The notes under the pieces: generated by a model
Told to the model about the DNA's origin: nothing
The model's input: the letters and a program-made list of their open reading frames with translations, nothing else
The model's database searches: none
Position numbers and translations under genes: made by a program
Shown here: one piece after another, positions 1-62,986 of the stretch
Numbering within the stretch: position 1 is the stretch's first letter
How the letters are laid out: the number at the start of each line of letters is the position of its first letter
DNA from: Nitrosopumilaceae archaeon
GTDB taxonomy: Archaea; Thermoproteota; Nitrososphaeria; Nitrososphaerales; Nitrosopumilaceae
Direction of reading: 5' to 3'
Assembly: GCA_965208905.1 (NCBI GenBank)
Contig: OZ242365.1
Span: forward strand, 32,001 to 96,000
Length of the DNA: 64,000 nucleotides

Positions 1-413
1 AGAACTTTACAGAAAAGATTGGCCTGATATTTGCCCCACTATTCTTTGTCATAATAGGGGCCCAGGTGGACTTCAGATCAATTGATCTAAACATACTGAT
101 GCTGAGTGGGATTATAGTGGTAGTTGCAATACTCACAAAACTACTTGGATGCGGTCTTCCCGCGATGCTGTTCCTCAAAGACAGAGCACGTGGCATGCGG
201 GTTGGCATTGGCATGATATCCCGTGGTGAGGTAGGTCTGATTGTGGCTGGCGTTGGTGTTGCCGCTGGGTCTCTGTCCAATGAGACATACTCTACAATTA
301 TACTCATGGTGGCTATTACGACTGTTATTACGCCTATATGGCTCAAGGCCGAATATAGAAAGGAGACTAAAAAATCTGGTACTAGTCCGCCTGCTGTAAA
401 AGATAACTCATAA
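1..413 (+). CDS. Cation:proton antiporter (CPA2/Kef type), C-terminal part, truncated by window start
   Basis: Hydrophobic helices with GIGMISRGEVGLIVA motif; frame open from the window edge. Confidence 0.85.
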   Translation, partial: NFTEKIGLIFAPLFFVIIGAQVDFRSIDLNILMLSGIIVVVAILTKLLGCGLPAMLFLKDRARGMRVGIGMISRGEVGLIVAGVGVAAGSLSNETYSTIILMVAITTVITPIWLKAEYRKETKKSGTSPPAVKDNS

Positions 414-1577
414 TGTTGTGTGGTTAGGTTTCTATCTTGATGTTGAACAATGATCTAAATTGTATAGTGTAAATAACCCGCACGGATGTGATTTGGTCAC
501 CATGTATGTATGTCTCTGAATATTGTGGCCTTTTACTATTCTAATCTCTGTTATGATGATTAATATTAAAAGACCATGAATTCAACTTTCCTGACCATCG
601 CCCGACCTTGAAGAGGCGCTCTATCTTGGACTCCGGCCCATCTGGGGTGAATGATTCTATTAACCTATGTGATCTGATCATATAAAATAAACACTAATGT
701 ATCCTTGATAACCTTGGTGCATGGTCGCTGCCTCTTACTGTCCATCGCTTAATGTATCTGGCAGGCGTGTCGTTTTTTGGATTCGATATTGTTTACAATA
801 CGATTCCAACGATAGAGCAGCTTTACATGATATGTGGTCATGTGTTTTATTGAGTTGTCTGTTTTAGACATCTAGCCTATACAAAAATTATATTATATTG
901 GGCGGTAGCTAATGAGGTGCCACAAATATAGATGGAGTCATCGGCACGGACAAACACTATGTAATGCGACAACCAGCGAAGGATCGGAGAATCAAGGTGG
1001 TATATGTCGAGTTAAGCATATCACAGTGGCACATTCAGCGGTTATGGCAGAGTGTGTCAAGACAGGGAAGTACCCGCCAAGGTTTATCAGTTGACCAAAG
1101 AAACTCACACCTTCAGATGTAGCGGTTCTGGGCATTAAGGACTTGTTGTGTAGTTGACTACGGTGTACATTTGGTAAAGGCATATGCAAACATGTGGCTG
1201 TAGTTAACGTCTGGCTTGTCGCTTTGACAGAATGACTTACAAGAAAAGTACTACGTTAATATCTGAACTTCTAATATCGTATCGTTATGGGTGTAAAATC
1301 TCCCAGAGTACTTGTGACTGATGGTTAAAATGATTTTATCAAACCTACCAAAAGTGTGTTCGAGTGTAGTGCCGTGTGCAAATTCGTGCATCTAAGATAC
1401 ATGACAGACCAAGTTTAACCATAATAACGTACATAAGATTTAACGGAAACACCACATCGTTGCTTTGTAAACGTGGCGACTTGAAGGTAAAAATTGGGAA
1501 TTATATACAAAAGTACACAACCTCGATTCTGAGAGTTAATACCTGAACCACGGAACGCGTCCATACAGCAACTCTCC

Positions 1578-1584
1578 TTAAATA
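1578..1584 (+). promoter_or_regulatory. Archaeal TATA box of tnpB-A, inside the cassette
   Basis: TTAAATA about 25 nt upstream of ATG 1607 (leaderless geometry). Confidence 0.55.
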
Positions 1585-1606
1585 CCAACATACCGTATTA
1601 CACATC

Positions 1607-2962
1607 ATGATACGGATAGTCAAGGTACCGCTACGAATGGATGTGTTGTTTGCAGAGTGGGCGCACCGCACGAATCATGCGTCAAGATATGTGTACAACC
1701 GCGCCGTATCAGAGTATTTGTTTGGCGGCGAATACATGGAGAGGGTGGTAGTGGACATACTACAGCCCTTCAAACTACCGAACACGTTGAAGGGTGTTAC
1801 GTCCGGTACGCTGAACGGTGACTACCATACATATGATTTTGGGTCGTCAAAGAGGGCATTAAAGTACGGCATGCACAAACAGCTTACGGGGTGGCGCGCC
1901 AAACATACATGGCTGCGCGAGTGCCCCACATCGTTTGGTAGGGGCGCCATACAGGATGCCTCCGTCGCATGTAGAAGGGTTATAGATGACAGCTCAGACC
2001 ACGCGCCGTACCGCCGCAAAGACGGCCGCATCATACTTTGTTCCGTTACACCGCCTGTACGAAAAGGTGGGCACACCATACATATCCCCGGATATGGTAT
2101 TGTAGAGACCGCCAAGCCCATCAATACATCATGGGGCATGCGCTCATTCAAGATAGTTGATGTCACCAAACGGGTGGACAAGCATACAAAGCCGTCAGAC
2201 CACATGTTTGAGCTGCATATTGCCATACATGAACCGGTAGAGTCGCACCGCAATACTGGTGTAATGCGGGGTGTTGATGTGGGCGGCAAGCATCTCGCCG
2301 TCACTGTCGACACACATGGCAACGTTACAATACACAACACCCGCCATAGAGCAATCCTGCGGGAGATTGACGCGCTAAAGATTTTGCGCGACCGCAAGAC
2401 ACGGCATGGCCGGAAGTGGCATATATTGAACGACCAGATTAAGCGGCTATACAGGAAGGCCAACAACATAGCCGCGAACACGATAAATCAGACGATTGCG
2501 CAGATAACTAATGGTGTGGGCGCAGTCGTGGTCGAGTCGCTCTCCGTAAAGGACATGACCACGCATGGTGGGAATTACAAACGCGCCATGAACCGTTCAA
2601 TGCGGGAGAACCGTGTCGGGGAGTTCCTGCGCAAGCTTGCGCAGTGGTGTGAGATACACAACATACCGCTGTTGGGGGCATCTGCCAAATACACGAGCCA
2701 GACGTGCCATGTGTGTGGTACGGTGGATGCTAAGTCGCGTGTCACACGCGACAAATTCATTTGCACTAATTGTACCAGAGTGTTTCACGCGGATGTCAAT
2801 GCCGCCTGGAATATCCTGTATAGGGCGGCGGGGAACGTCGTCCTAAGACGGCCGGGGCATAAGGAGGGCTACAAACCAACACCTTCTATGCTCCACTCCA
2901 TACAACGAAGTCGTCAGAAAAGGCATGAGTGTACAGCCGAGGCTGTGTACTTTTGTATATAA
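1607..2962 (+). CDS. tnpB: TnpB RNA-guided endonuclease, family A
   Basis: RuvC-I GVDVG, RuvC-II VVESL, Zn finger CHVC..CTNC, RuvC-III ADVNAAWNI; stop codon lies inside the right TIR. Confidence 0.93.
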   Translation: MIRIVKVPLRMDVLFAEWAHRTNHASRYVYNRAVSEYLFGGEYMERVVVDILQPFKLPNTLKGVTSGTLNGDYHTYDFGSSKRALKYGMHKQLTGWRAKHTWLRECPTSFGRGAIQDASVACRRVIDDSSDHAPYRRKDGRIILCSVTPPVRKGGHTIHIPGYGIVETAKPINTSWGMRSFKIVDVTKRVDKHTKPSDHMFELHIAIHEPVESHRNTGVMRGVDVGGKHLAVTVDTHGNVTIHNTRHRAILREIDALKILRDRKTRHGRKWHILNDQIKRLYRKANNIAANTINQTIAQITNGVGAVVVESLSVKDMTTHGGNYKRAMNRSMRENRVGEFLRKLAQWCEIHNIPLLGASAKYTSQTCHVCGTVDAKSRVTRDKFICTNCTRVFHADVNAAWNILYRAAGNVVLRRPGHKEGYKPTPSMLHSIQRSRQKRHECTAEAVYFCI

Positions 2963-2990
2963 TTCCCTAAAAATTCGCTGCTCATTGTAA
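2820..2990 (+). ncRNA. Putative omegaRNA scaffold plus flank-derived guide, tnpB-A
   Basis: Stems GGGCGGCG/CGTCGTCC, GGGGCATA..GGAGG/CCTTCTATGCTCC and AGTGTACAGCC-GA-GGCTGTGTACT overlapping the ORF tail; boundaries inferred. Confidence 0.55.
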
Positions 2991-4141
2991 TGACTATACT
3001 GGGATACGACCTTTTCAAATCACATACGATGCTAGACGGTAAGACTTTGACTTAGATGGCAGGTATATTCATCAAGGAAGATGATATACTTCAAGTCGCT
3101 GTGGTATGGCTGTCCAGATCTTGATGTCGCTGTATGTAATGTGATTTATAATCCCGTAAAAAGACTATATTAATGCTGGACATGAAGGCCCGTCATTTGA
3201 ATACGAATTGTGGTTATGGTGCGGCGTAAATATCTGTTATCTACAAACTTTTCTGTACAGTGTTAATCGCAATACAGTGTTGATTAAAATTTGAATATGA
3301 TGTATTTATAATATGCGTCGGTCACATATCAAATGACCTATTTTGGACCATTTATACATCCGGCGCGAATACAACAATACCTGATGCTAGAAGTATGACA
3401 TGAACACTCTATTTTATCAAAAAATACATCTCGGCGACAAAACAATTCCTCGTAAATTTTCTCTGAGACTTTTAATTTAGTCTAATTTTGAAGCGTTCTT
3501 AGTCTTACCGTGAGAATTATGCCTCATAGTTCTTGGAATATTTGACATGAGTATCAACATTATGGCAAAAATACGAATATGTTTTCAAACTTATTTCATA
3601 CAGACACAAAGACTCTAGACATTTGTGAATTACTGTATGTTGATCATAACCATTTATTTTCCAATTATATCAATAATTGAAATATCTAGACGCCCATGAC
3701 ATCTCTGACCCAGCCTGATTTGGCATTTAACAAACCCATAACTTGTCTCTACTAAATCATCCTATGTCGAAAGCGGTATTCGACTTTACTGGCAAGCAAT
3801 CACAAACAACATCAAACGTCTTTCATCAGGTTTTGATGCATTTAATGAAATAACAATCTAGAGTGGCCAGATTGTATTTGGACGATCTTAAAATTGGGTT
3901 TGAATTATTCATGTATCATTACGAGAAGGACTGATGTACAACAGCAAGATACTACAGAATTATTTTCAAGATTGCCAACTGCATCTATCGTCTATGATTT
4001 TTGTAAAAGTCTGTAACATGTAACATCAAATTGTAAAGACGTGGATATTTTTTATCTGTAAATAAATTATTATTTTTCAGTGAACCACATTAAATCGTTA
4101 AAATGGGAAAAACTAAAATATCAATTAAAATAAATCACTTT

Positions 4142-4510
4142 ATGAGTATTGACCAAGCAGCAATTCAAGCTGAAATTACAAGTATATATGAAGAGTTAGA
4201 CCTTCTCAAAAAAACATTAATAGAAATAGATTTGGCCGATGCCAAAAAAGTAAAGCGTGGCAGACCCCGTAAGACTGCAACCACAGAGACGCCCGCACCA
4301 CCCAAAAGAGGTCGTGGCAGACCCCGTAAGACTGCAACCACAGAGACGCCCGCACCACCCAAAAGAGGTCGTGGCAGACCCCGTAAGACTGCAACCACAG
4401 AGACGCCCGCACCACCCAAAAGAGGTCGTGGCAGACCCCGTAAGACTGCAACCACAGAGACGCCCGCACCACCCAAAAGAGGTCGTGGCAGACCACGCAA
4501 AAACACTTAG
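4142..4510 (+). CDS. Multi-AT-hook DNA-binding protein with N-terminal amphipathic helix
   Basis: Five RGRPRK motifs separated by TATTETPAPPKRG linkers; start probably ATG 4142 (ORF track gives 4103). Confidence 0.75.
   Translation: MSIDQAAIQAEITSIYEELDLLKKTLIEIDLADAKKVKRGRPRKTATTETPAPPKRGRGRPRKTATTETPAPPKRGRGRPRKTATTETPAPPKRGRGRPRKTATTETPAPPKRGRGRPRKNT
4256..4494 (+). repeat. 57-bp perfect tandem repeat, 4 copies plus partial fifth
   Basis: Unit CGTGGCAGACCCCGTAAGACTGCAACCACAGAGACGCCCGCACCACCCAAAAGAGGT starting at 4256, 4313, 4370, 4427, 4484. Confidence 0.97.
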
Positions 4511-4580
4511 CTCTGACACATCTGTCGATTTTTTGTTTTTTACAAATCACTCCGTCATGAATTTATGACCGTTTAATCAT

Positions 4581-6143
4581 ATGTCATGTAACATGAGAAC
4601 TCAGATGGATGATGCGTGCGACAAAATAGCCCAGAGATTACTCTGTATGAAGGATCCGACTCCTCAGGACGCTAAAAAGATAATTAAAAGTGTCTGCGCA
4701 AAGATGTCTTTAGAGCGAATACCTCGCAAACAAGAGATATTGGCTGCCGCAGGCGATGATGGTTATGCCAAACTCCAGACTATATTGCTAAAGAAACCCG
4801 CCAAGACCGGCTCTGGTGTGGCTGTGATAGCCTTGATGCCCAAGCCATATGCCTGTCCACATGGCCGCTGTACGTACTGTCCCGGCGGCATTACATACAA
4901 CACCCCCAACAGCTATACGGGTACTGAGCCGTCCACCATAAATGCCATGGAGCATCAATACGACCCGGCACTACAGATAACCACAAAACTGGACCAGCTG
5001 ATATCATACGGGCACGATCCATCAAAACTTGAACTGGTAATAGTTGGTGGCACATTCATGTTTATGCCCGAACAGTATAGGTATAATTTTATAAAATCCT
5101 GCTATGACGCGCTAAACAAAACAATATCGCCTACAATTGAATCGGCACAAAGACTCAATTCCGTATCTGCAATACGGAATGTCGGCTTCACCATAGAGAC
5201 CAAGCCCGACTATTGCAAGGCCGAACATATCGATACCATGTTGAAGTATGGCATAACCCGGGTCGAGATAGGGGTCCAAACTCTAAGAGAACAAGTATAC
5301 CGTATAGTAAATAGGGGTCACACCTTTGATGATGTTGTAGAGTCGTTCCAGGCCGCTAGAGATGCGGGTCTCAAAATAGTGGCACACATGATGCCTGGCC
5401 TTCCCACCATGTCGCCTCAGGATGATATAGATGACTTTGCACAACTGTTTGATGATGAGCGTCTACGCCCGGATATGCTCAAGATATACCCCTCCTTGGT
5501 ACTGCGCAACACACCGCTCTATGAACAGTATCTGGATGGCTCCTATACGCCTTATGATGACTCTGCAATGATCAATGTACTGGCTACTGCAAAGGCAAAG
5601 TTTCCTGAATGGATACGTGTAATGCGTATACAGCGTGAGATACCATCTGTGGATATTGTGGCTGGTCCAAATCAGGGTAATCTGCGCCAGCTAATACTAA
5701 ACGAGATGGAACGTCGGCATACCCGATGTCGTTGTATACGATGTAGACAACCAAAACGAATATCTACAAAACTACACAAGAGACGTATTGATTATATTGC
5801 ATCTGGAGGCAACGAGGTGTTCCTATCGTATGTTGATAGTGATGATCAAATATATGGTTTCATACGGCTGCGCAGACCCAGTGAAAAGTCACATAGACCT
5901 GAAACTGTAAACTCTACACTAGTTCGGGAGTTACATGTGTATGGCCGCCTGTTGGGGATAGGCAAGCACGGCGGCATACAACACTCTGGTCTTGGCAGAG
6001 ACCTGCTTGCAGAAGCCGAACGTATATCGAAGATAGAATTTGGAGCAGAACGTATACTGATAATAAGCGCCGTCGGCACCAGACAGTACTACTCCTCTTT
6101 GGGGTATTCATTATATGGACCATACATGTCAAAATCTCTGTGA
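4581..6143 (+). CDS. elp3: Elp3 radical SAM/GNAT tRNA U34 carboxymethyltransferase
   Basis: CPHGRCTYCPGG, ETKPD, RELHVYG, QHSGLG, ISAVGTRQYY motifs. Confidence 0.95.
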   Translation: MSCNMRTQMDDACDKIAQRLLCMKDPTPQDAKKIIKSVCAKMSLERIPRKQEILAAAGDDGYAKLQTILLKKPAKTGSGVAVIALMPKPYACPHGRCTYCPGGITYNTPNSYTGTEPSTINAMEHQYDPALQITTKLDQLISYGHDPSKLELVIVGGTFMFMPEQYRYNFIKSCYDALNKTISPTIESAQRLNSVSAIRNVGFTIETKPDYCKAEHIDTMLKYGITRVEIGVQTLREQVYRIVNRGHTFDDVVESFQAARDAGLKIVAHMMPGLPTMSPQDDIDDFAQLFDDERLRPDMLKIYPSLVLRNTPLYEQYLDGSYTPYDDSAMINVLATAKAKFPEWIRVMRIQREIPSVDIVAGPNQGNLRQLILNEMERRHTRCRCIRCRQPKRISTKLHKRRIDYIASGGNEVFLSYVDSDDQIYGFIRLRRPSEKSHRPETVNSTLVRELHVYGRLLGIGKHGGIQHSGLGRDLLAEAERISKIEFGAERILIISAVGTRQYYSSLGYSLYGPYMSKSL

Positions 6144-28266: not shown

Positions 28267-29884
28267 GGTTCCTCTCTCAAAGTCGGGTGACGGTTGATGT
28301 GTGTTGGATAGTGTTAAATACATTATTAAACCGTACTATGTAATGACTTTTATAAAAAAATAGTAGGGCAGTAACACGTCCATACACAAAAAATTTGGGC
28401 ATACAATACGTGTTTGAACATGTCAAGAAGGTGGCAGAAGTAGCGTACATTATGGCGCATAGTACAGGGAAGAATACCTATGATGTTGACGTATTGATAT
28501 ACCATACAATGCGCGGTTCTGACCCCAAAGTATATTCGGCCATAACGCAGACCGCCATACGGGACGGAGTTGCCGCCCATAAAACGTACAGGACAAAGGC
28601 TGCGCAGGGCATGAAGGTGTCTGAACCCGTATTCCGCAATCCGGTGGTAAAGTTGAAAAACCAAAATTGGAGGCTTAATCCGATAGCGGGTGGATATATG
28701 GCTATTGCAAATGTTGGCTCATCAAAACACCCACATATGATAGCAATTCCTGTTTCTTCAGATGTAGTACGCCGAATAGGACAAAACAAACTGGGCAAGT
28801 TGTGGATTACGCCGACCACATACACCATAACATATTACAACAAAGTGCCCGAGGTTGAAAAGCCCCACCCACACGGCAAGTCAGAGATTATCGAGTTGCT
28901 TACGGATGTGGGTTATGTGGGCGGTACACCAAAAGATGTAATCGGTGTAGACATCAATGAAAAGAATATCACCGTAGGCGATAAAAATACGATGATACAG
29001 TTTGATCTATCATATACGATACAGGCCATTGAGGACGCAAAGACTGAAGATGTAAACAATACGTATACCCGTACACATGATAATGCCGCATATGCGGCAC
29101 GTACCGGAAGGCGTGTTGCACACAAAAAAGAGGAGGCGCGCAGAGAAAAGCAACAAGTCACATATGGCGGTCATAAATTATACAACAAACTCAGACGTAG
29201 ATACAGGAAACTCAAGAGGGAGGGCAAACACAAGAGGGCCGCCGAAATAAAGAATCAGATGAGCAGATGCGTATTGAGCATACCGCATAACCACACAAAG
29301 TCAAAGAAGAATGCTAAAAAGCGCAGGGTGACCAAAGCCATGCGCCACCACGAACATGTGCTGAGTGTGATAGCACTATGCACTGCACAGTGGGCTACAC
29401 AATCTGGGTGTTTGGTGGTGTTGGAGGATTTAACCCACATATCGTACAATTGGCAGAAGGGTGGAAAGTTTGGACGTAGAATGCGTCGCAGGTTATATTC
29501 TGCCATGATGCGAAAGGCATCAAATTTAATTTATGAAAAATCCAGATTTTTGGGAGTGGGGGCATTACATATGCGTCCACACAACACATCCAAGTTGTGT
29601 GCTGCATGCAGAACCACATTAACTGGAACTTATCATAAAAAAGACTGCACCCGCTGCCGTATGGTTGGCGTAGACAGAGACGTCAACGCAGTGGAGAATA
29701 TACGGCTAACAAGCGCCGTATCCCGATATGGCCGTCAGGTTTCGGCCAGTCTGGGCGAAGTCCGTCGTGGTGTGGATGTAATACTCGATCCCACATCACT
29801 CATACAGGGTTGCTGGCGCAACTGGGCTGACAGACTATCCCGCATGGCGGCGGTGTAACGTCACCCAACTTTGTGGGAAGAACC
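28267..29884 (+). mobile_element. Non-autonomous TIR cassette carrying tnpB (family B, copy 1)
   Basis: TIRs GGTTCCTCTCTCAAAGTCGGGTGACG and revcomp GGTTCTTCCCACAAAGTTGGGTGACG (22/26); 8-bp TSD CTGATTTT at 28259-28266 and 29885-29892. Confidence 0.9.
28343..29858 (+). CDS. tnpB: TnpB family B copy 1, +1 frameshift in A-run near the 5' end (open frame 28395-29858)
   Basis: GVDINE, VLEDL, CAAC..CTRC, DRDVNAVENI; A7 at 28354-28360 versus A6 in copy 2. Confidence 0.85.
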
Positions 29885-58798: not shown

Positions 58799-60844
58799 TT
58801 AGTCGCTTTTGTATTGGTTTACGTGCTCTGCTATGGTCCTGTATAGTGACCTAAAGTTGTCCCGTGTCTGACTACTGAGAAAGTCTGTCTGACGGGTGGA
58901 AATCTTGTCGCATATGTAACGAGTTATGTCCAGATGATCAAACTCTCCCCAGTCATCATCGTAATGTTCGCTCCATATCTCTGATAGTGACTTGACTATG
59001 CCGCCATCCCCGTCCACCAAATCAGAGGGTATGTCGGTGTACCTCTTACCTCGAAGCTTGACCTCATATGTCTGGTTTACCGCGTACAGATAGTCATTAC
59101 GGGCAATATAATCCTCTATTGACTCTAGTTTTTTACCATCTCTCTCATAGAATACTGTCTGTATGCTTGAGAATCCATTTTGAGCCAAGGCTGCCGCTAT
59201 GTGACGTGACTCTATTGTGTCGTCTAGCAATATTATTGTCTTGTAGCCATGATCCCTATAGAATATGGATAGAGGTAGGACTGCATCCTTTGAGTGACTG
59301 GCCACTACGTTTAGCGGGTTCATGGATATGCTGGGATCTTGAACAAACTTATCAAATGCATTCAGATACATCGCATCAGACATGGTTTCCACTATGACTA
59401 CGGGTCGGGAGTTGGTACCAATACTTGTGTCTGTTATGGACTGAACCAAACCCCGTGACAAACCATACAGTATTGGTGTCAATGTCTTACTGTCTGCATT
59501 CCAATAGTCATAGAAGATTCTACTAAGGTGTCGCCGTCTGTCCAACTCCACCACTAACAGATTACCTGGATTATAATCAAATATCATAAAGGGTGAGTGT
59601 GTTGCGTATAATACCTGATTTGAACCTGCCAGATCCCTGAGCAAGTCTGCTATGCCCAACTGTTGTGTCGGGTGCAGATTACGCGCCGGCTCATCAAGTA
59701 GCAGTATGGCCTCTTTTAGCTCTGCACGTTGTGTCTCAGCAGCAAAGTTGACTATAAATGAGAATGTCCACTTGAATCCTTCGGCCCGACGATTCAACAG
59801 TCCTGTATTGGTAATGGTCCCATCATGGTGTACGTCTGATATGACAAGACTCATTATATTTCCCGGATTATATCTCAAATCCACACGTATGGGGTCCCCC
59901 TTCCAGGTGGGATTCAGTCTCTTTGTCAGTCGGTTGCTGGAAGTGTTCAGTATCTTTATGAGTGTGGAGGGACTGTCCTTGAAAGACTCCAAAGCGTCCA
60001 AATCCAGCTCTGCTAAATAGAACAAATTCCTCACAGTCTCTGCCTTGTCGAACTCTTCCACATACTCTATGGCATCCCTTCTCTTTTCTCTTTGATCATC
60101 ACTAAACTCATTGAGATTGATATTTCCATGTATCTTTTTGTAGTCGGAGAAGTAGACAAATCTAGGATGTAACTCTGCACTGATAAAGTTCTCCAATGTC
60201 TTTCTCTGGCTCATGCCTTCCATTATACTCTCAAAACTGTTCTGAGGGCTCTCGTATATTGCAGCCCACTCTTTCAAGACCTGATCCTCCCGCATGGCTA
60301 TTGTTCTTATCTGCGTATTCAAATGATTAAATCCTGCATCAAACTCCTGTGATGTCTGTGGTTGAGGCGACTCAAGAAAGGTTGAATCTATCTTTTCTCG
60401 TATGTGATTGGGTATGGTACTCAAAAAAGTCTGAACATCATTTACAAAGTTACTCCAAGATCTGGAGTCAGGCTGTATGGTCTCATCAATCTGTACATCT
60501 CCAAAACTATACTGCACTTCTGAAGATTTGTTGGTACGAAAGAGCTTTATCTCTCTTATCTCTGGCATGTCTGGAAAATTTTCTTGTATTATGGTAGTCT
60601 CTGTCTGTGTCAGCTCAAAATTGCCTTCTGCCAGTACTATCTCAGACTTTAACTCCTCGGACATCTCATCACACAAGTCCAGCTCTGAGGCGTGTCCATC
60701 CTTGTTTAGAAGTGTGAGGGCTTCTAGTATTGTGGTCTTGCCACTCTCATTGCGCCCCACAAATGTGGCCAAATCTCCCACTGATATCTCGCCAGAGTCA
60801 TGTATACATCTAAAAGCCCTGATACGGAATTTGCGCAATCGCAT
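58799..60844 (-). CDS. OLD-like ABC ATPase with TOPRIM-like C-terminal domain
   Basis: GRNESGKTT, LLLDEP..LHP, ATHSP; VIVE..SD and ILLDD. Confidence 0.8.
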   Translation of the reverse strand: MRLRKFRIRAFRCIHDSGEISVGDLATFVGRNESGKTTILEALTLLNKDGHASELDLCDEMSEELKSEIVLAEGNFELTQTETTIIQENFPDMPEIREIKLFRTNKSSEVQYSFGDVQIDETIQPDSRSWSNFVNDVQTFLSTIPNHIREKIDSTFLESPQPQTSQEFDAGFNHLNTQIRTIAMREDQVLKEWAAIYESPQNSFESIMEGMSQRKTLENFISAELHPRFVYFSDYKKIHGNINLNEFSDDQREKRRDAIEYVEEFDKAETVRNLFYLAELDLDALESFKDSPSTLIKILNTSSNRLTKRLNPTWKGDPIRVDLRYNPGNIMSLVISDVHHDGTITNTGLLNRRAEGFKWTFSFIVNFAAETQRAELKEAILLLDEPARNLHPTQQLGIADLLRDLAGSNQVLYATHSPFMIFDYNPGNLLVVELDRRRHLSRIFYDYWNADSKTLTPILYGLSRGLVQSITDTSIGTNSRPVVIVETMSDAMYLNAFDKFVQDPSISMNPLNVVASHSKDAVLPLSIFYRDHGYKTIILLDDTIESRHIAAALAQNGFSSIQTVFYERDGKKLESIEDYIARNDYLYAVNQTYEVKLRGKRYTDIPSDLVDGDGGIVKSLSEIWSEHYDDDWGEFDHLDITRYICDKISTRQTDFLSSQTRDNFRSLYRTIAEHVNQYKSD

Positions 60845-60954
60845 TAATGTTTTGTATATATACAGAGCGATTTAATTCCTTCGGGAGTGTGCGCAATCAG
60901 GAGGTCTGTATCCGATAACTAGAACAATAATAACTTACATATTTTATCAATAAA

Positions 60955-62569
60955 GGTTTCTCCCGCAAAGTCGGGTGGTGGTTGATGTGTGTTGGATAGC
61001 GTTAAATACGCCATTAAACCGTACTATATGATGACTCTTGTAAAAAATAGCAGGGCGATAACACGTCCATACACAAAAAATTTGGGCATGCGGCATGTGT
61101 TTGAACATGTCAGGAAGGTGGCAGAAGTGGCGTACATTATAGCGAATAATACAGGGAGGAATACCTATGATGTTAACGCATTGATGTATCGTATAATGCG
61201 CGGTCCTGACCCCAAAGTATATTCGTCCATAACGCAGACCGCCATACGGGACGGGGTTGCCACCCATAAAACGTACAATACAAAGACTGCGCAGGGCATG
61301 AAGGTATCTGAGCCCGTGTTTCGCAATCCGGTTGTAAAGTTAACAAATCAAAGTTGGAGGCTGAATCCGATAGCGGGCGGATATATGGCTATTGCAAATG
61401 TTGGCTCATCAAAATACCCACATATGATAGCAATTCCCGTCTCTTCAGATGTGGTACGTAAAATAGGACAAAATGAGTTGGGCGAGTTGTGGATTACGCC
61501 AACTACATACACCATAACATATTACAACAAAGTGCCCGAGGTTGAAAAGCCCCACCCACACGGCAAGTCAGAGATTATAGAGTTGCTTACGGATGTGGGT
61601 TGTGTGGGCGGCACACCAAAGGATGTAATTGGCGTGGATATTAATGAAAAGAACATCACCGTAGGCGACAAGAATACAATGGTACGGTTTGATCTATCAG
61701 ATACGATACAAGCCATTGAGGAGGCAAAGACTGAGGATATAAACAATACGTATACCCGTACACATGATGATGCTGTATATGCGGCACGTACCGGAAGGCG
61801 CATTACACACAAGAAAGAAGAGGAGCGCAGAGAAAAGCAACAAGTCACATATGGCGGCCCCAAACTACACAACAAACTCAAACGCAGATACAGGAAACTC
61901 AAGAGGGCCGGTAAGCTCAAGAGGGCCGCGGAGATAAAGAAGCAGATGAACAGATGCATACTGAGCATACAGCATAACCACACAAAGTCAAGGAAGAATG
62001 CTAAAAAGCGCAGGGTGACCAAAGCCGTGCGCCACCACGAACATGTGCTGAGTGTGATAGCGTTATGTATAGCACAGTGGGCTGCACAATCCGGGTGTTT
62101 GGTGATGTTGGAGGATTTAACTCACATATCGTATAATTGGCAGAAGGGGGGAAAGTTTGGACGCAGTATGCGTCGCAGGCTATACTCTGCCATGATGCGA
62201 AAGGCATCGGATTTAATTTATGAAAAGTCCCGGTTTTTGGGAGTGGAGGCATTACATATGCGTCCACACAACACATCCAAGCTATGTGCTGCATGTAGAA
62301 CCATACTAACTGGAACTTATCATAAAAAAGACTGCACCCACTGCCATATAATTGGCGTAGATCGCGACGTCAATGCAGTGGAGAATATACGGCGAACAAG
62401 TGCCGTATCCCGATACGGTCGTCAGGTTTCGGCCAGTCTGAGCGAAGTCCGTCGTGGTGTGGATGTAATACTCGATCCCACACCACTCATACAGGGTTGC
62501 TGGAGCAACTGGGCTGACAGACTATCCCGCGTGGCGGGGGTGTAATCACCCGACTTTGTGGGAGGAACC
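60955..62569 (+). mobile_element. Non-autonomous TIR cassette carrying tnpB (family B, copy 2)
   Basis: TIRs GGTTTCTCCCGCAAAGTCGGGTG and revcomp GGTTCCTCCCACAAAGTCGGGTG (21/23); homology to copy 1 stops at the TIRs; no TSD. Confidence 0.9.
61031..62545 (+). CDS. tnpB: TnpB family B copy 2 (intact)
   Basis: GVDINE, MLEDL, CAAC..CTHC, DRDVNAVENI; GTTAAATA TATA upstream. Confidence 0.88.
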   Translation: MTLVKNSRAITRPYTKNLGMRHVFEHVRKVAEVAYIIANNTGRNTYDVNALMYRIMRGPDPKVYSSITQTAIRDGVATHKTYNTKTAQGMKVSEPVFRNPVVKLTNQSWRLNPIAGGYMAIANVGSSKYPHMIAIPVSSDVVRKIGQNELGELWITPTTYTITYYNKVPEVEKPHPHGKSEIIELLTDVGCVGGTPKDVIGVDINEKNITVGDKNTMVRFDLSDTIQAIEEAKTEDINNTYTRTHDDAVYAARTGRRITHKKEEERREKQQVTYGGPKLHNKLKRRYRKLKRAGKLKRAAEIKKQMNRCILSIQHNHTKSRKNAKKRRVTKAVRHHEHVLSVIALCIAQWAAQSGCLVMLEDLTHISYNWQKGGKFGRSMRRRLYSAMMRKASDLIYEKSRFLGVEALHMRPHNTSKLCAACRTILTGTYHKKDCTHCHIIGVDRDVNAVENIRRTSAVSRYGRQVSASLSEVRRGVDVILDPTPLIQGCWSNWADRLSRVAGV

Positions 62570-62789: not shown

Positions 62790-62986
62790 TTGTTGTGCAA
62801 AGAACAACGTTTCACAATTCACATGCCTCCCGGCTGCAGGTCTGTATCGTGGACACCTACGGACCGGCAGATTGATAGGCATATGGCGCGCCATCTGAAT
62901 ATCAAAATCATAGCCAGACAAAAGGATCCAACGACCAACCTCGCCCCGTACGGCATTAGTAATGTGTATCATTGTATATAATTCCC
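62790..62986 (+). pseudogene. Orphan right end related to the family-A TIR
   Basis: TGTGTATCATTGTATATAATTCCC matches 2944-2967 at 21/24; preceding sequence is decayed. Confidence 0.6.

Follow-up and report, generated by a model that had tools for sequence, protein, structure and literature searches.

In the TnpB-omegaRNA system of ISDra2 (IS200/IS605), the parts of the structural report that treat these features describe a nuclease with a RuvC D-E-D triad and a zinc finger, a scaffold that overlaps the 3' end of tnpB and continues up to the right end of the element, a guide taken from flank sequence, and a pseudoknot beside the guide in which nucleotides -5 to -3 pair with -103 to -105; the element itself has subterminal DNA hairpins and makes no target-site duplication (TSD) (Nakagawa et al., 2023; PMC10097598). 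The presence of TnpB in DDE transposons with terminal inverted repeats (TIRs) is also already known from a 2023 survey, passages of which distinguish branches DDE-1 to DDE-6 with inverted terminal repeats around TnpB, place the TnpB 3' end less than 250 bp from the transposon end, and read solo TnpBs whose ends resemble those of copies with a transposase as mobilised in trans (Altae-Tran et al., 2023 PNAS; PMC10691335). The partners named in the relevant passages are IS630 in that survey and ISL2, IS630 and IS1031 in a 2026 OMEGA review (PMC13565253), and IS1595 is absent from the main text of the survey, occurring in its supplementary text only within a list of transposase profiles. In eukaryotic DDE transposons, Fanzor uses a fixed TSD (TA, TTAA) as part of its target-adjacent motif (TAM), with the 3' TSD within the scaffold, according to the review's account, and section 6.2 of the same source leaves open how a TAM-dependent nuclease serves a DDE transposon without a fixed target (PMC13565253). 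Here, we describe a 1472-bp tnpB element in a 64,000-nt stretch of a Nitrosopumilaceae archaeon genome (GenBank assembly GCA_965208905.1, contig OZ242365.1, positions 32,001 to 96,000; hereafter the window), which is best read, from its termini and gene content, as a non-autonomous IS1595-type element with TnpB cargo, and whose relatives point to a candidate TAM of essentially one base located just outside the TSD.

The element occupies positions 1496-2967 of the window and has tnpB as its sole gene. Its 30-nt TIRs (1496-1525 and 2938-2967) are complementary at 29 of 30 positions (97%, repeat finder), and an 8-bp TSD, TAAAAATT, stands on either side at 1488-1495 and 2968-2975. A TSD of 9 or 10 bp that would include the preceding G was considered and rejected, since the base before the right copy is the C of the TIR, and the empty-site joint described below shares exactly 8 letters. 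The features of the locus, in window coordinates, are as follows.

1484-1487, + strand: candidate TAM position, AAGG, 5' of the left TSD, with the G at 1487 as position -1
1488-1495, no strand assigned: left TSD copy TAAAAATT; in run X7 one contig goes straight from 1487 to 2968, sharing 8 letters
1496-1525, + strand: left TIR, whose terminal 12-mer GGGAATTATATA is common to IS1595-family elements
1607-2962, + strand: tnpB open reading frame (ORF), 451 aa, identified by Pfam; stop codon TAA at 2960-2962, within the right TIR
2790-2967, + strand: candidate omegaRNA scaffold, overlapping the tnpB 3' end and reaching the element terminus; 5' limit approximate
2823-2843, + strand: Stem A hairpin, 2823-2830 with 2836-2843; loop GGGAA at 2831-2835, the proposed pseudoknot partner of terminal UUCCC
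2847-2915, + strand: long-range Stem B, GACGGC at 2847-2852 with GUCGUC at 2910-2915, enclosing a variable inner domain
2923-2956, + strand: terminal hairpin, formed in its loop and 3' arm by the inner half of the right TIR
2938-2967, - strand: right TIR; its last 11 nt, 2957-2967 (AUAUAAUUCCC in RNA), are unpaired in the fold
2968-2987, + strand: predicted guide, which would open with the right TSD copy TAAAAATT at 2968-2975 and continue into the flank

The element is mobile. In the source genome (G000; one contig, 2.21 Mb, 99.6% complete) there are 15 full-length copies at 78-100% identity, together with a copy interrupted by an insertion, another with an internal deletion and three right-end fragments, and an 8-bp TSD with at most one mismatch was found in 13 of the 17 copies whose ends were examined (12 of them perfect). 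The empty site was recovered from run X7, a related strain, in which a contig joins 1487 to 2968, omits 1480 bases and leaves one TSD copy, while run X3 contains both occupied junctions.

IS1595-family elements make 8-bp TSDs and carry passenger genes, and the termini of the tnpB element connect it with this family. The 12-mer GGGAATTATATA occurs 92 times in G000 at up to one mismatch and also bounds many other elements with 8-bp TSDs. Four transposase-carrying elements with these ends (2837 bp, 2690 bp and two of 2131 bp) have intact genes for 316-320-aa proteins that match DDE_Tnp_IS1595 (Pfam E 1e-40; 2e-41 to 7e-41) and have the IS1595 Zn ribbon; the terminal 12-13 nt are identical to those of the tnpB element in two of them (G000 1043578-1046414 and 1770047-1772736), 10 identical terminal nt are shared by the 2131-bp elements, and the TSD is 8 bp long in both the tnpB elements and the transposase-carrying ones. 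The element thus resembles IS1595 insertion sequences of the same genome in its terminal 10-13 nt and TSD length, and differs from them in encoding no transposase and in carrying TnpB and a guide-RNA region as cargo. Y1_Tnp and Resolvase had no match in G000, against 75 matches to the TnpB TNB domain; membership of IS200/IS605 or IS607 was accordingly ruled out by the 30-nt TIR, the 8-bp TSD and the lack of any Y1 or serine transposase match in that genome. Because the termini match those of IS1595 elements and the genome yielded no such transposase, mobilisation in trans by IS1595 transposases encoded elsewhere in the genome appears the most likely route of movement.

Further observations concern elements of this kind and their ends. 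The 2837-bp IS1595 element has a passenger gene (L031:553-1914, G000 1043630-1044991) whose 454-aa product joins an N6/N4 DNA methyltransferase to an HNH nuclease domain; a disrupted relative of this gene is present in the 2690-bp element. At G000 882738-882782, a 45-bp unit consisting of two TIRs back to back lies between TTCAACTC and TTCCACTC, and has the appearance of a minimal element or of a product of excision or abortive transposition. At window 62963-62986, on the - strand, a TIR-like end stands alone (GGGAATTATATACAATGATACACA, 3 mismatches to the element TIR). A generic TIR finder, which needs an exact 9-mer seed, missed many known elements, and its empty rows carry no meaning.

The 451-aa product is a TnpB by its Pfam matches to PF07282 Cas12f1-like_TNB (59.2 bits, cut-off 26.3) and PF01385 OrfB_IS605 (32.1 bits, cut-off 30.5). 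Residues D224, E310 and D396, which from their motif context we take to be those of RuvC-I, II and III, and the zinc-finger cysteines C367, C370, C386 and C389 are invariant in alignment A4 (five sequences, three clades), the RuvC-III Asp codon being 2792-2794. The D-E-D triad and the CxxC...CxxC zinc finger are intact, and the same triad and finger are found in the ISDra2 nuclease, in the passages that describe it (PMC10097598); RNA-guided, TAM-dependent DNA cleavage would be the predicted activity. TnpBs from the same-genus genomes G006 and G001 are 53-58% identical, and those from G015, a genome of another genus, 24-32%.

A first-pass annotation of the window, made by a model from the letters and their ORFs, had proposed that the sequence after RuvC-III forms several stems, the last of which includes the inner TIR, and had named a lack of covariation among homologues as one of the outcomes that would refute it. 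The stems, the overlap with the TIR and the covariation were all found. On the + strand, 2790-2967 folds at -62.4 kcal/mol with z = -2.72 (1 of 200 shuffles as stable), compared with z = -1.07 on the - strand (30 of 200). The core of the terminal hairpin consists of a 5' arm AGTGTACAGCC (2928-2938), a GA loop (2939-2940) and a 3' arm GGCTGTGTACT (2941-2951), and since the right TIR spans 2938-2967, the loop and 3' arm fall in its inner part; the fold lengthens the stem to 2923-2956 and leaves 11 nt (2957-2967) unpaired. Four of the 14 hairpin pairs are G.U, and these can therefore pair solely in + strand RNA.

The same 3' architecture is present in the same-genus genomes G006 and G001 and in the other genus (G015). 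For 13 G015 elements, a consensus fold of 47 pairs has 97.2% of its cells paired (shuffled mean 92.0%), 11 pairs changed on both sides (shuffled mean 6.3) and a covariation score of 0.221 (shuffled mean 0.123), none of 500 shuffles reaching as high in any of the three measures, and controls in which the fold was slid along the sequences gave 31-48% paired. Stems A and B covary in 43 sequences of three clades: the closing pair of Stem A is GC in 22, CG in 11 and AU in 4, and in Stem B pair 112:198 is AU in 22 and GC in 19, and pair 115:195 CG in 18, GC in 12 and GU in 11. Because the terminal hairpins of the different clades are misregistered in the three-clade MAFFT alignment (A1), this hairpin was judged per clade; pair 171:202, at its base, is CG in 15 and GC in 6 sequences of the window's own family plus G008, and three of its pairs changed on both sides in G015. 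For the block around Stem A, GGGCGGCNGGGAWNGUCGUCC, the reading frame is ..AGG GCG GCG GGG AAC GUC.. in the window but GGG CGG CCG GGA AGG UCG.. in G015, and the block is therefore conserved as nucleotides and not as protein.

The position of the hairpin also varies little: among 16 representatives, drawn from six families, a hairpin of quite different sequence stops exactly 11 nt short of the terminus in 12 and 6-9 nt short of it in the other four. In the G006 elements L038 and L039, the left inner TIR is unlike the right and the right-end hairpin is kept, so the hairpin is not a mere by-product of TIR symmetry. We consider it supported, by the fold and above all by its relatives, that the ~180 nt after RuvC-III form a structured + strand RNA, a candidate omegaRNA scaffold reaching the right end of the element, as the scaffold does in ISDra2, where it likewise overlaps the 3' end of tnpB (PMC10097598, in the passages on its architecture).

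Some other candidate pairings were discarded. The single-sequence stem GUCGUC/GACGGC was superseded by the covarying Stems A and B; an inner stem GGAGG/CCUUC (2863-2867 with 2882-2886) is broken by a common CCCGCC variant in other copies; and pairing of GGAAU (W-N codons, ~2809-2813) with terminal AUUCC appears in one minimum-energy fold and is not kept in G006 or G015. One X2 contig, which starts at 2872, crosses the right end and enters the flank that belongs to another copy, was not used as support.

Three solo right-end fragments of 164-200 bp (L019:1501-1700, L020:1501-1694 and L021:1501-1664; G000 1493807-1494006, 2197132-2197325 and 1694379-1694542), with starts equivalent to window 2768, 2777 and 2804, retain just the candidate omegaRNA region and the right TIR. 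Whether as orphan modules for guide RNA or simply as remnants of deletions, either origin may apply to them.

The Stem A loop and the terminus of the element are complementary. GGGAA is the loop in 24 and GGGAU in 15 of the 43 sequences (GGGAA or GGGAT being counted in 41 of 43), and in 43 of 43 it pairs with the terminal UUCCC bases at 4-5 positions; more distant elements in bacterial and archaeal records have a hairpin loop GGGA(A/C) at the equivalent place, and all four elements with terminus GUCCC have the loop GGGAC. As in ISDra2, whose pseudoknot joins its last scaffold bases beside the guide to an upstream segment in the portions of the report that deal with it (PMC10097598), this complementarity leads us to take the scaffold as ending at the element end. 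The pairing of loop and terminus, the G at position -1 and the analogy with ISDra2 together argue that the terminus of the TIR belongs to the scaffold and that the guide would open with the TSD, at 2968. On that premise, an empty site would have its TAM in the bases that precede the TSD.

These bases were counted in 35 elements whose two TSD copies differ at no more than one position, each oriented by its TnpB (longest) ORF: the window's family gave 13, the E1639 clade 1, G015 11, G006 5, G001 1, Nitrosopumilus 1, Thermodesulfobacteriota 1 and Ca. Porisulfidus 2. The counts exclude copies with more than one TSD mismatch (c116k and c1895k, with A at -1 and no TSD; c1024k and d2089k, with G), composite TIR pairings, and elements of the size of miniature inverted-repeat transposable elements, which cannot be oriented. 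At position -1, 5' of the left TSD, the base is G in 33 and A in 2 elements, and in the window's own family it is G in 13 of 13 copies. The first TSD base is T in 25, A in 8 and C in 2; the last (A 16, T 10, G 5, C 4) has no motif, and neither a conserved base nor a TAM of the Fanzor kind inside the TSD is found there, so that the latter candidate was rejected. The +1 base after the right TSD is A in 11, T in 11, G in 7 and C in 6; thus, when the right end is read inward, G occupies this position in 6 of 35 elements, against 33 of 35 at the left (Fisher p = 3e-11). In 10 TnpB-less elements with the same termini, the 20 ends carry G 9, A 9 and C 2 (p = 7e-5 against the left ends of TnpB elements); the insertions are independent but come from kin genomes, and both p-values therefore overstate independence. 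Upstream of -1, the window's family has T at -3 in 10 of 13 and A at -4 in 9 of 13 copies, and nothing is conserved in G015. A promoter was dismissed as the explanation of the -1 G, which sits 9 nt outside the TIR and is present also in bacterial hosts.

Other TnpB clades have other bases at this place. In the E1420 clade, with the same termini, G stands at -1 in 0 of 2 elements (0 of 3 with a copy of two TSD mismatches). A second TIR class of G000 (GGTTCCTCCCGCAA...), with 8-bp TSDs, is uniform at -2, where all 14 of its full-length elements carry T; 5' of the left TSD, the long subfamily has TTA (5) or ATA (3) and the short subfamily TTG (4), TTA (1) or TTT (1), and a right-side motif was seen in neither subfamily among these 14. 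The E1420 and second-class contrasts lead us to assign the motif to TnpB rather than to the transposase. The favoured reading is that the TAM of the clade studied here would be essentially one base, G, with weaker A (-4) and T (-3) in the window's own family. The first-pass annotation had asked for a logo of the bases 5' of the TSD, which is the count given above, and on the premise of a DDE transposase, now borne out by the IS1595-family elements of G000 that share the terminal 12-13 nt and the 8-bp TSD, it had foreseen a relaxed TAM, a target preference of the transposase, or a guide starting inside the TIR. The first agrees with the G in 33 of 35 elements, the second survives as a weaker, symmetric preference underlying it, and the third is disfavoured.

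Could the transposase itself account for the G? Purine occupies 18 of the 20 outer positions of the TnpB-less elements, so the transposase does favour R there, and this weaker symmetric preference is probably its own; moreover, the same G is common to TnpBs that are 24-32% identical, all of them on this TIR type. A target preference made one-sided by functionally different ends, and unrelated to any TAM, would explain both. We nevertheless regard this as unlikely, given that the TnpB-less controls split evenly between G and A and 3 of the 10 have G at neither end, that E1420 elements with the same termini lack the G in both cases counted, and that under the one TIR of the second class the TnpB subfamilies differ (TTA/ATA versus TTG). 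In addition, DDE target preferences are usually palindromic, and a C would then be expected on the right side, where it was found in 6 of 35 elements.

The 3' region also admits other uses. A guide starting inside the TIR, at 2957, would have the constant first 11 nt AUAUAAUUCCC, and the RNA would then target element ends or act as a fixed-guide regulator; the hairpin stopping exactly 11 nt from the terminus in most representatives, and the unpaired state of those 11 nt in most folds, speak in its favour. The terminal UCCC, on the other hand, complements the invariant loop GGGA as a scaffold should, the 11 nt are simply the conserved end of the transposon, and such a guide would match the ends of every copy, which is self-destructive for an element with an intact D-E-D nuclease, and leave the G 5' of the TSD unexplained; we find it decidedly improbable. 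Still less credence is given to the structure being an mRNA 3' stabiliser or terminator, or the hairpin being inverted subterminal transposase-binding DNA sites, with no guide scaffold at all. Subterminal repeats are common in DDE transposons, and a U run (CUUUUGU) follows the hairpin in the window's family, but the G006 family lacks the U run, the hairpin sequence is absent from TnpB-less elements with the same termini, the G.U pairs and the changes from G-C to A-U fit only + strand RNA, and the ~130 nt of upstream stems covary too and are conserved in two reading frames.

Returning to the guide that starts with the TSD, we think it fairly probable, though well short of assured, that the locus is a non-autonomous IS1595-ended element with tnpB and an omegaRNA, whose flank guide begins with the TSD, whose TAM is the G before the TSD, and which gains from homing. 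An IS1595 transposase acting in trans would cut the shared termini and insert the element with an 8-bp TSD and a mild purine-N8-pyrimidine preference. A tnpB transcript would read through the right TIR into the flank, and the last ~180 nt inside the element would fold into Stem A, Stem B with its inner domain, an A-rich linker, and the terminal hairpin that uses the inner TIR, while the terminal UUCCC of the TIR would pair with the Stem A loop GGGAA into a pseudoknot beside the guide, as seen in ISDra2 and here proposed from sequence. TnpB would bind this folded 3' region, the flank from the TSD onward would become the guide, and an empty allele, or a site retaining one TSD copy after removal of the element, would present G-TSD-flank and be cut, whereupon repair from the element-bearing copy would restore the element. 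A homing model of this type has been published for IS605-type TnpB, as summarised in section 6.2 of the 2026 review (PMC13565253). Insertions behind G would persist through homing, and because the benefit would be limited to insertions behind the TAM, G would be enriched at the left side alone; a one-base TAM overlapping the purine preference of the transposase would let most insertions qualify.

Several points weigh against this reading. A one-base TAM is unusually short for TnpB, and the same G across TnpBs of such low identity is atypical of protein-specified TAMs and could reflect shared transposon ends; the TnpB-less controls are 10 elements of one genome, not orientable; and the single IS1595 transposase gene of G015 is without exactly matching ends. 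With regard to the RNA, the single-sequence z-score is modest and the relatives carry the weight of the case, the window's own family with G008 (23 sequences) covaries thinly (both sides altered in 6 of 43 pairs), and in the three-clade comparison some of the predicted pairs are broken. Loop and terminus are near-invariant, hence there is little covariation in the pseudoknot: three elements with terminus UUCCC have the loop GGGAC and 15 have GGGAU, the fifth pair covarying only partly, and a hairpin loop of just 5 nt leaves little steric room for a pseudoknot. Finally, an Rfam scan of window 1-6000 (E up to 1) gave no omegaRNA match, its only hit being a chance microRNA match at 517-586, and RNA runs X1 and X2 yielded short contigs of low depth (2-7) on parts of tnpB, possibly DNA, without RNA ends or strand.

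More tentatively, it is conceivable that this TnpB clade shrank its TAM to the single G that matches the purine preference of the transposase, and recruited the terminus UUCCC as a pseudoknot strand, becoming a nearly TAM-free nuclease. If so, TnpB homing would work for TIR/TSD elements, for example on sister chromosomes, and also on empty sites regenerated by microhomology repair between the TSD copies; the spread of the same module through archaeal and bacterial sponge-associated genomes, which would go with it, is an equally speculative suggestion. In a bolder version, less likely, G-bound TnpB would help to position the transpososome during insertion.

Compared with the described systems, the element appears to work like a TnpB-omegaRNA homing module on an IS1595-type chassis. 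It differs from ISDra2 in having TIRs and an 8-bp TSD in place of the subterminal DNA hairpins and absent TSD described in the passages on that element (PMC10097598), in the lack of a Y1 TnpA match in G000, and in a candidate TAM of about one base with the TSD standing between TAM and left end. As with Fanzor in the review's account (PMC13565253), a TnpB relative lies inside a TIR/TSD transposon with its scaffold reaching the transposon end, but the 8-bp TSD is variable here and does not include the conserved base. In the second TIR class, the motif before the TSD (TTA or ATA, or mostly TTG in the short form) resembles the 'TA motif 8 bp upstream' that the supplementary passages give for DDE-5; the G-only motif, the fold and the pairing of loop and terminus are not described in the passages of the survey on these branches, and the present clade may or may not be one of its six DDE branches (PMC10691335). 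A literature search for TnpB with IS1595, and for TnpB with Nitrosopumil or sponge, found no description of such a system.

Additional TnpB elements and neighbouring genes were recorded. Two of the second-class TnpB elements, with TIRs beginning GGTTCCTCCCGCAA, are within the window at 28267-29884 and 60955-62569 (G000 60267-61884 and 92955-94569), and a third class, with ~30-nt TIRs beginning TGGGCTGTGACGTT and 8-bp TSDs, is found at G000 250605-252075 and 2209813-2211265; all TnpBs of G000 seem to be borne by TIR/TSD (DDE-type) elements. A pair of identical TnpB elements of 1639 bp (G000 1455264-1456902 and 2049469-2051107, genome + strand) have exchanged flanks, the left TSD of one, TAATTTCC, being the right TSD of the other, which indicates recombination between the copies. 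TnpB elements with GGGAATTATATAC-like termini and 8-bp TSDs (L111, L125, L127, L129, L135, L108, L123, L137, L149, L147 and L115) come from Thermodesulfobacteriota, Ca. Porisulfidus, Rhodobacter sp., Caldilineaceae, Gammaproteobacteria and Nitrosopumilaceae, and their occurrence in bacteria and archaea suggests transfer across domains, possibly within shared habitats; of 388 relatives confirmed by tblastn, 80 were kept. Downstream of the element, an ORF at 4103-4510 (+) encodes a basic, AT-hook-like repeat, PRKTATTETPAPPKRGRGR, four times in tandem, and lies upstream of a 520-aa ORF (4581-6143) whose product looks like a radical-SAM/acetyltransferase (Elp3-like) protein.

In brief, our data offer a sequence-level answer to the question of how a TAM-dependent nuclease could serve a DDE transposon without a fixed target, namely an apparently very short motif just outside the TSD. 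With 75 TnpB domain matches, TIRs of at least three classes, and a match to neither Y1 nor serine transposases, G000 is a clean natural system for DDE-borne TnpB, in which different TnpB clades, each with its own motif at the same place, provide a natural read-out of the TAM. If the one-base motif is true, this clade would be a candidate source of compact genome editors with few targeting limits.

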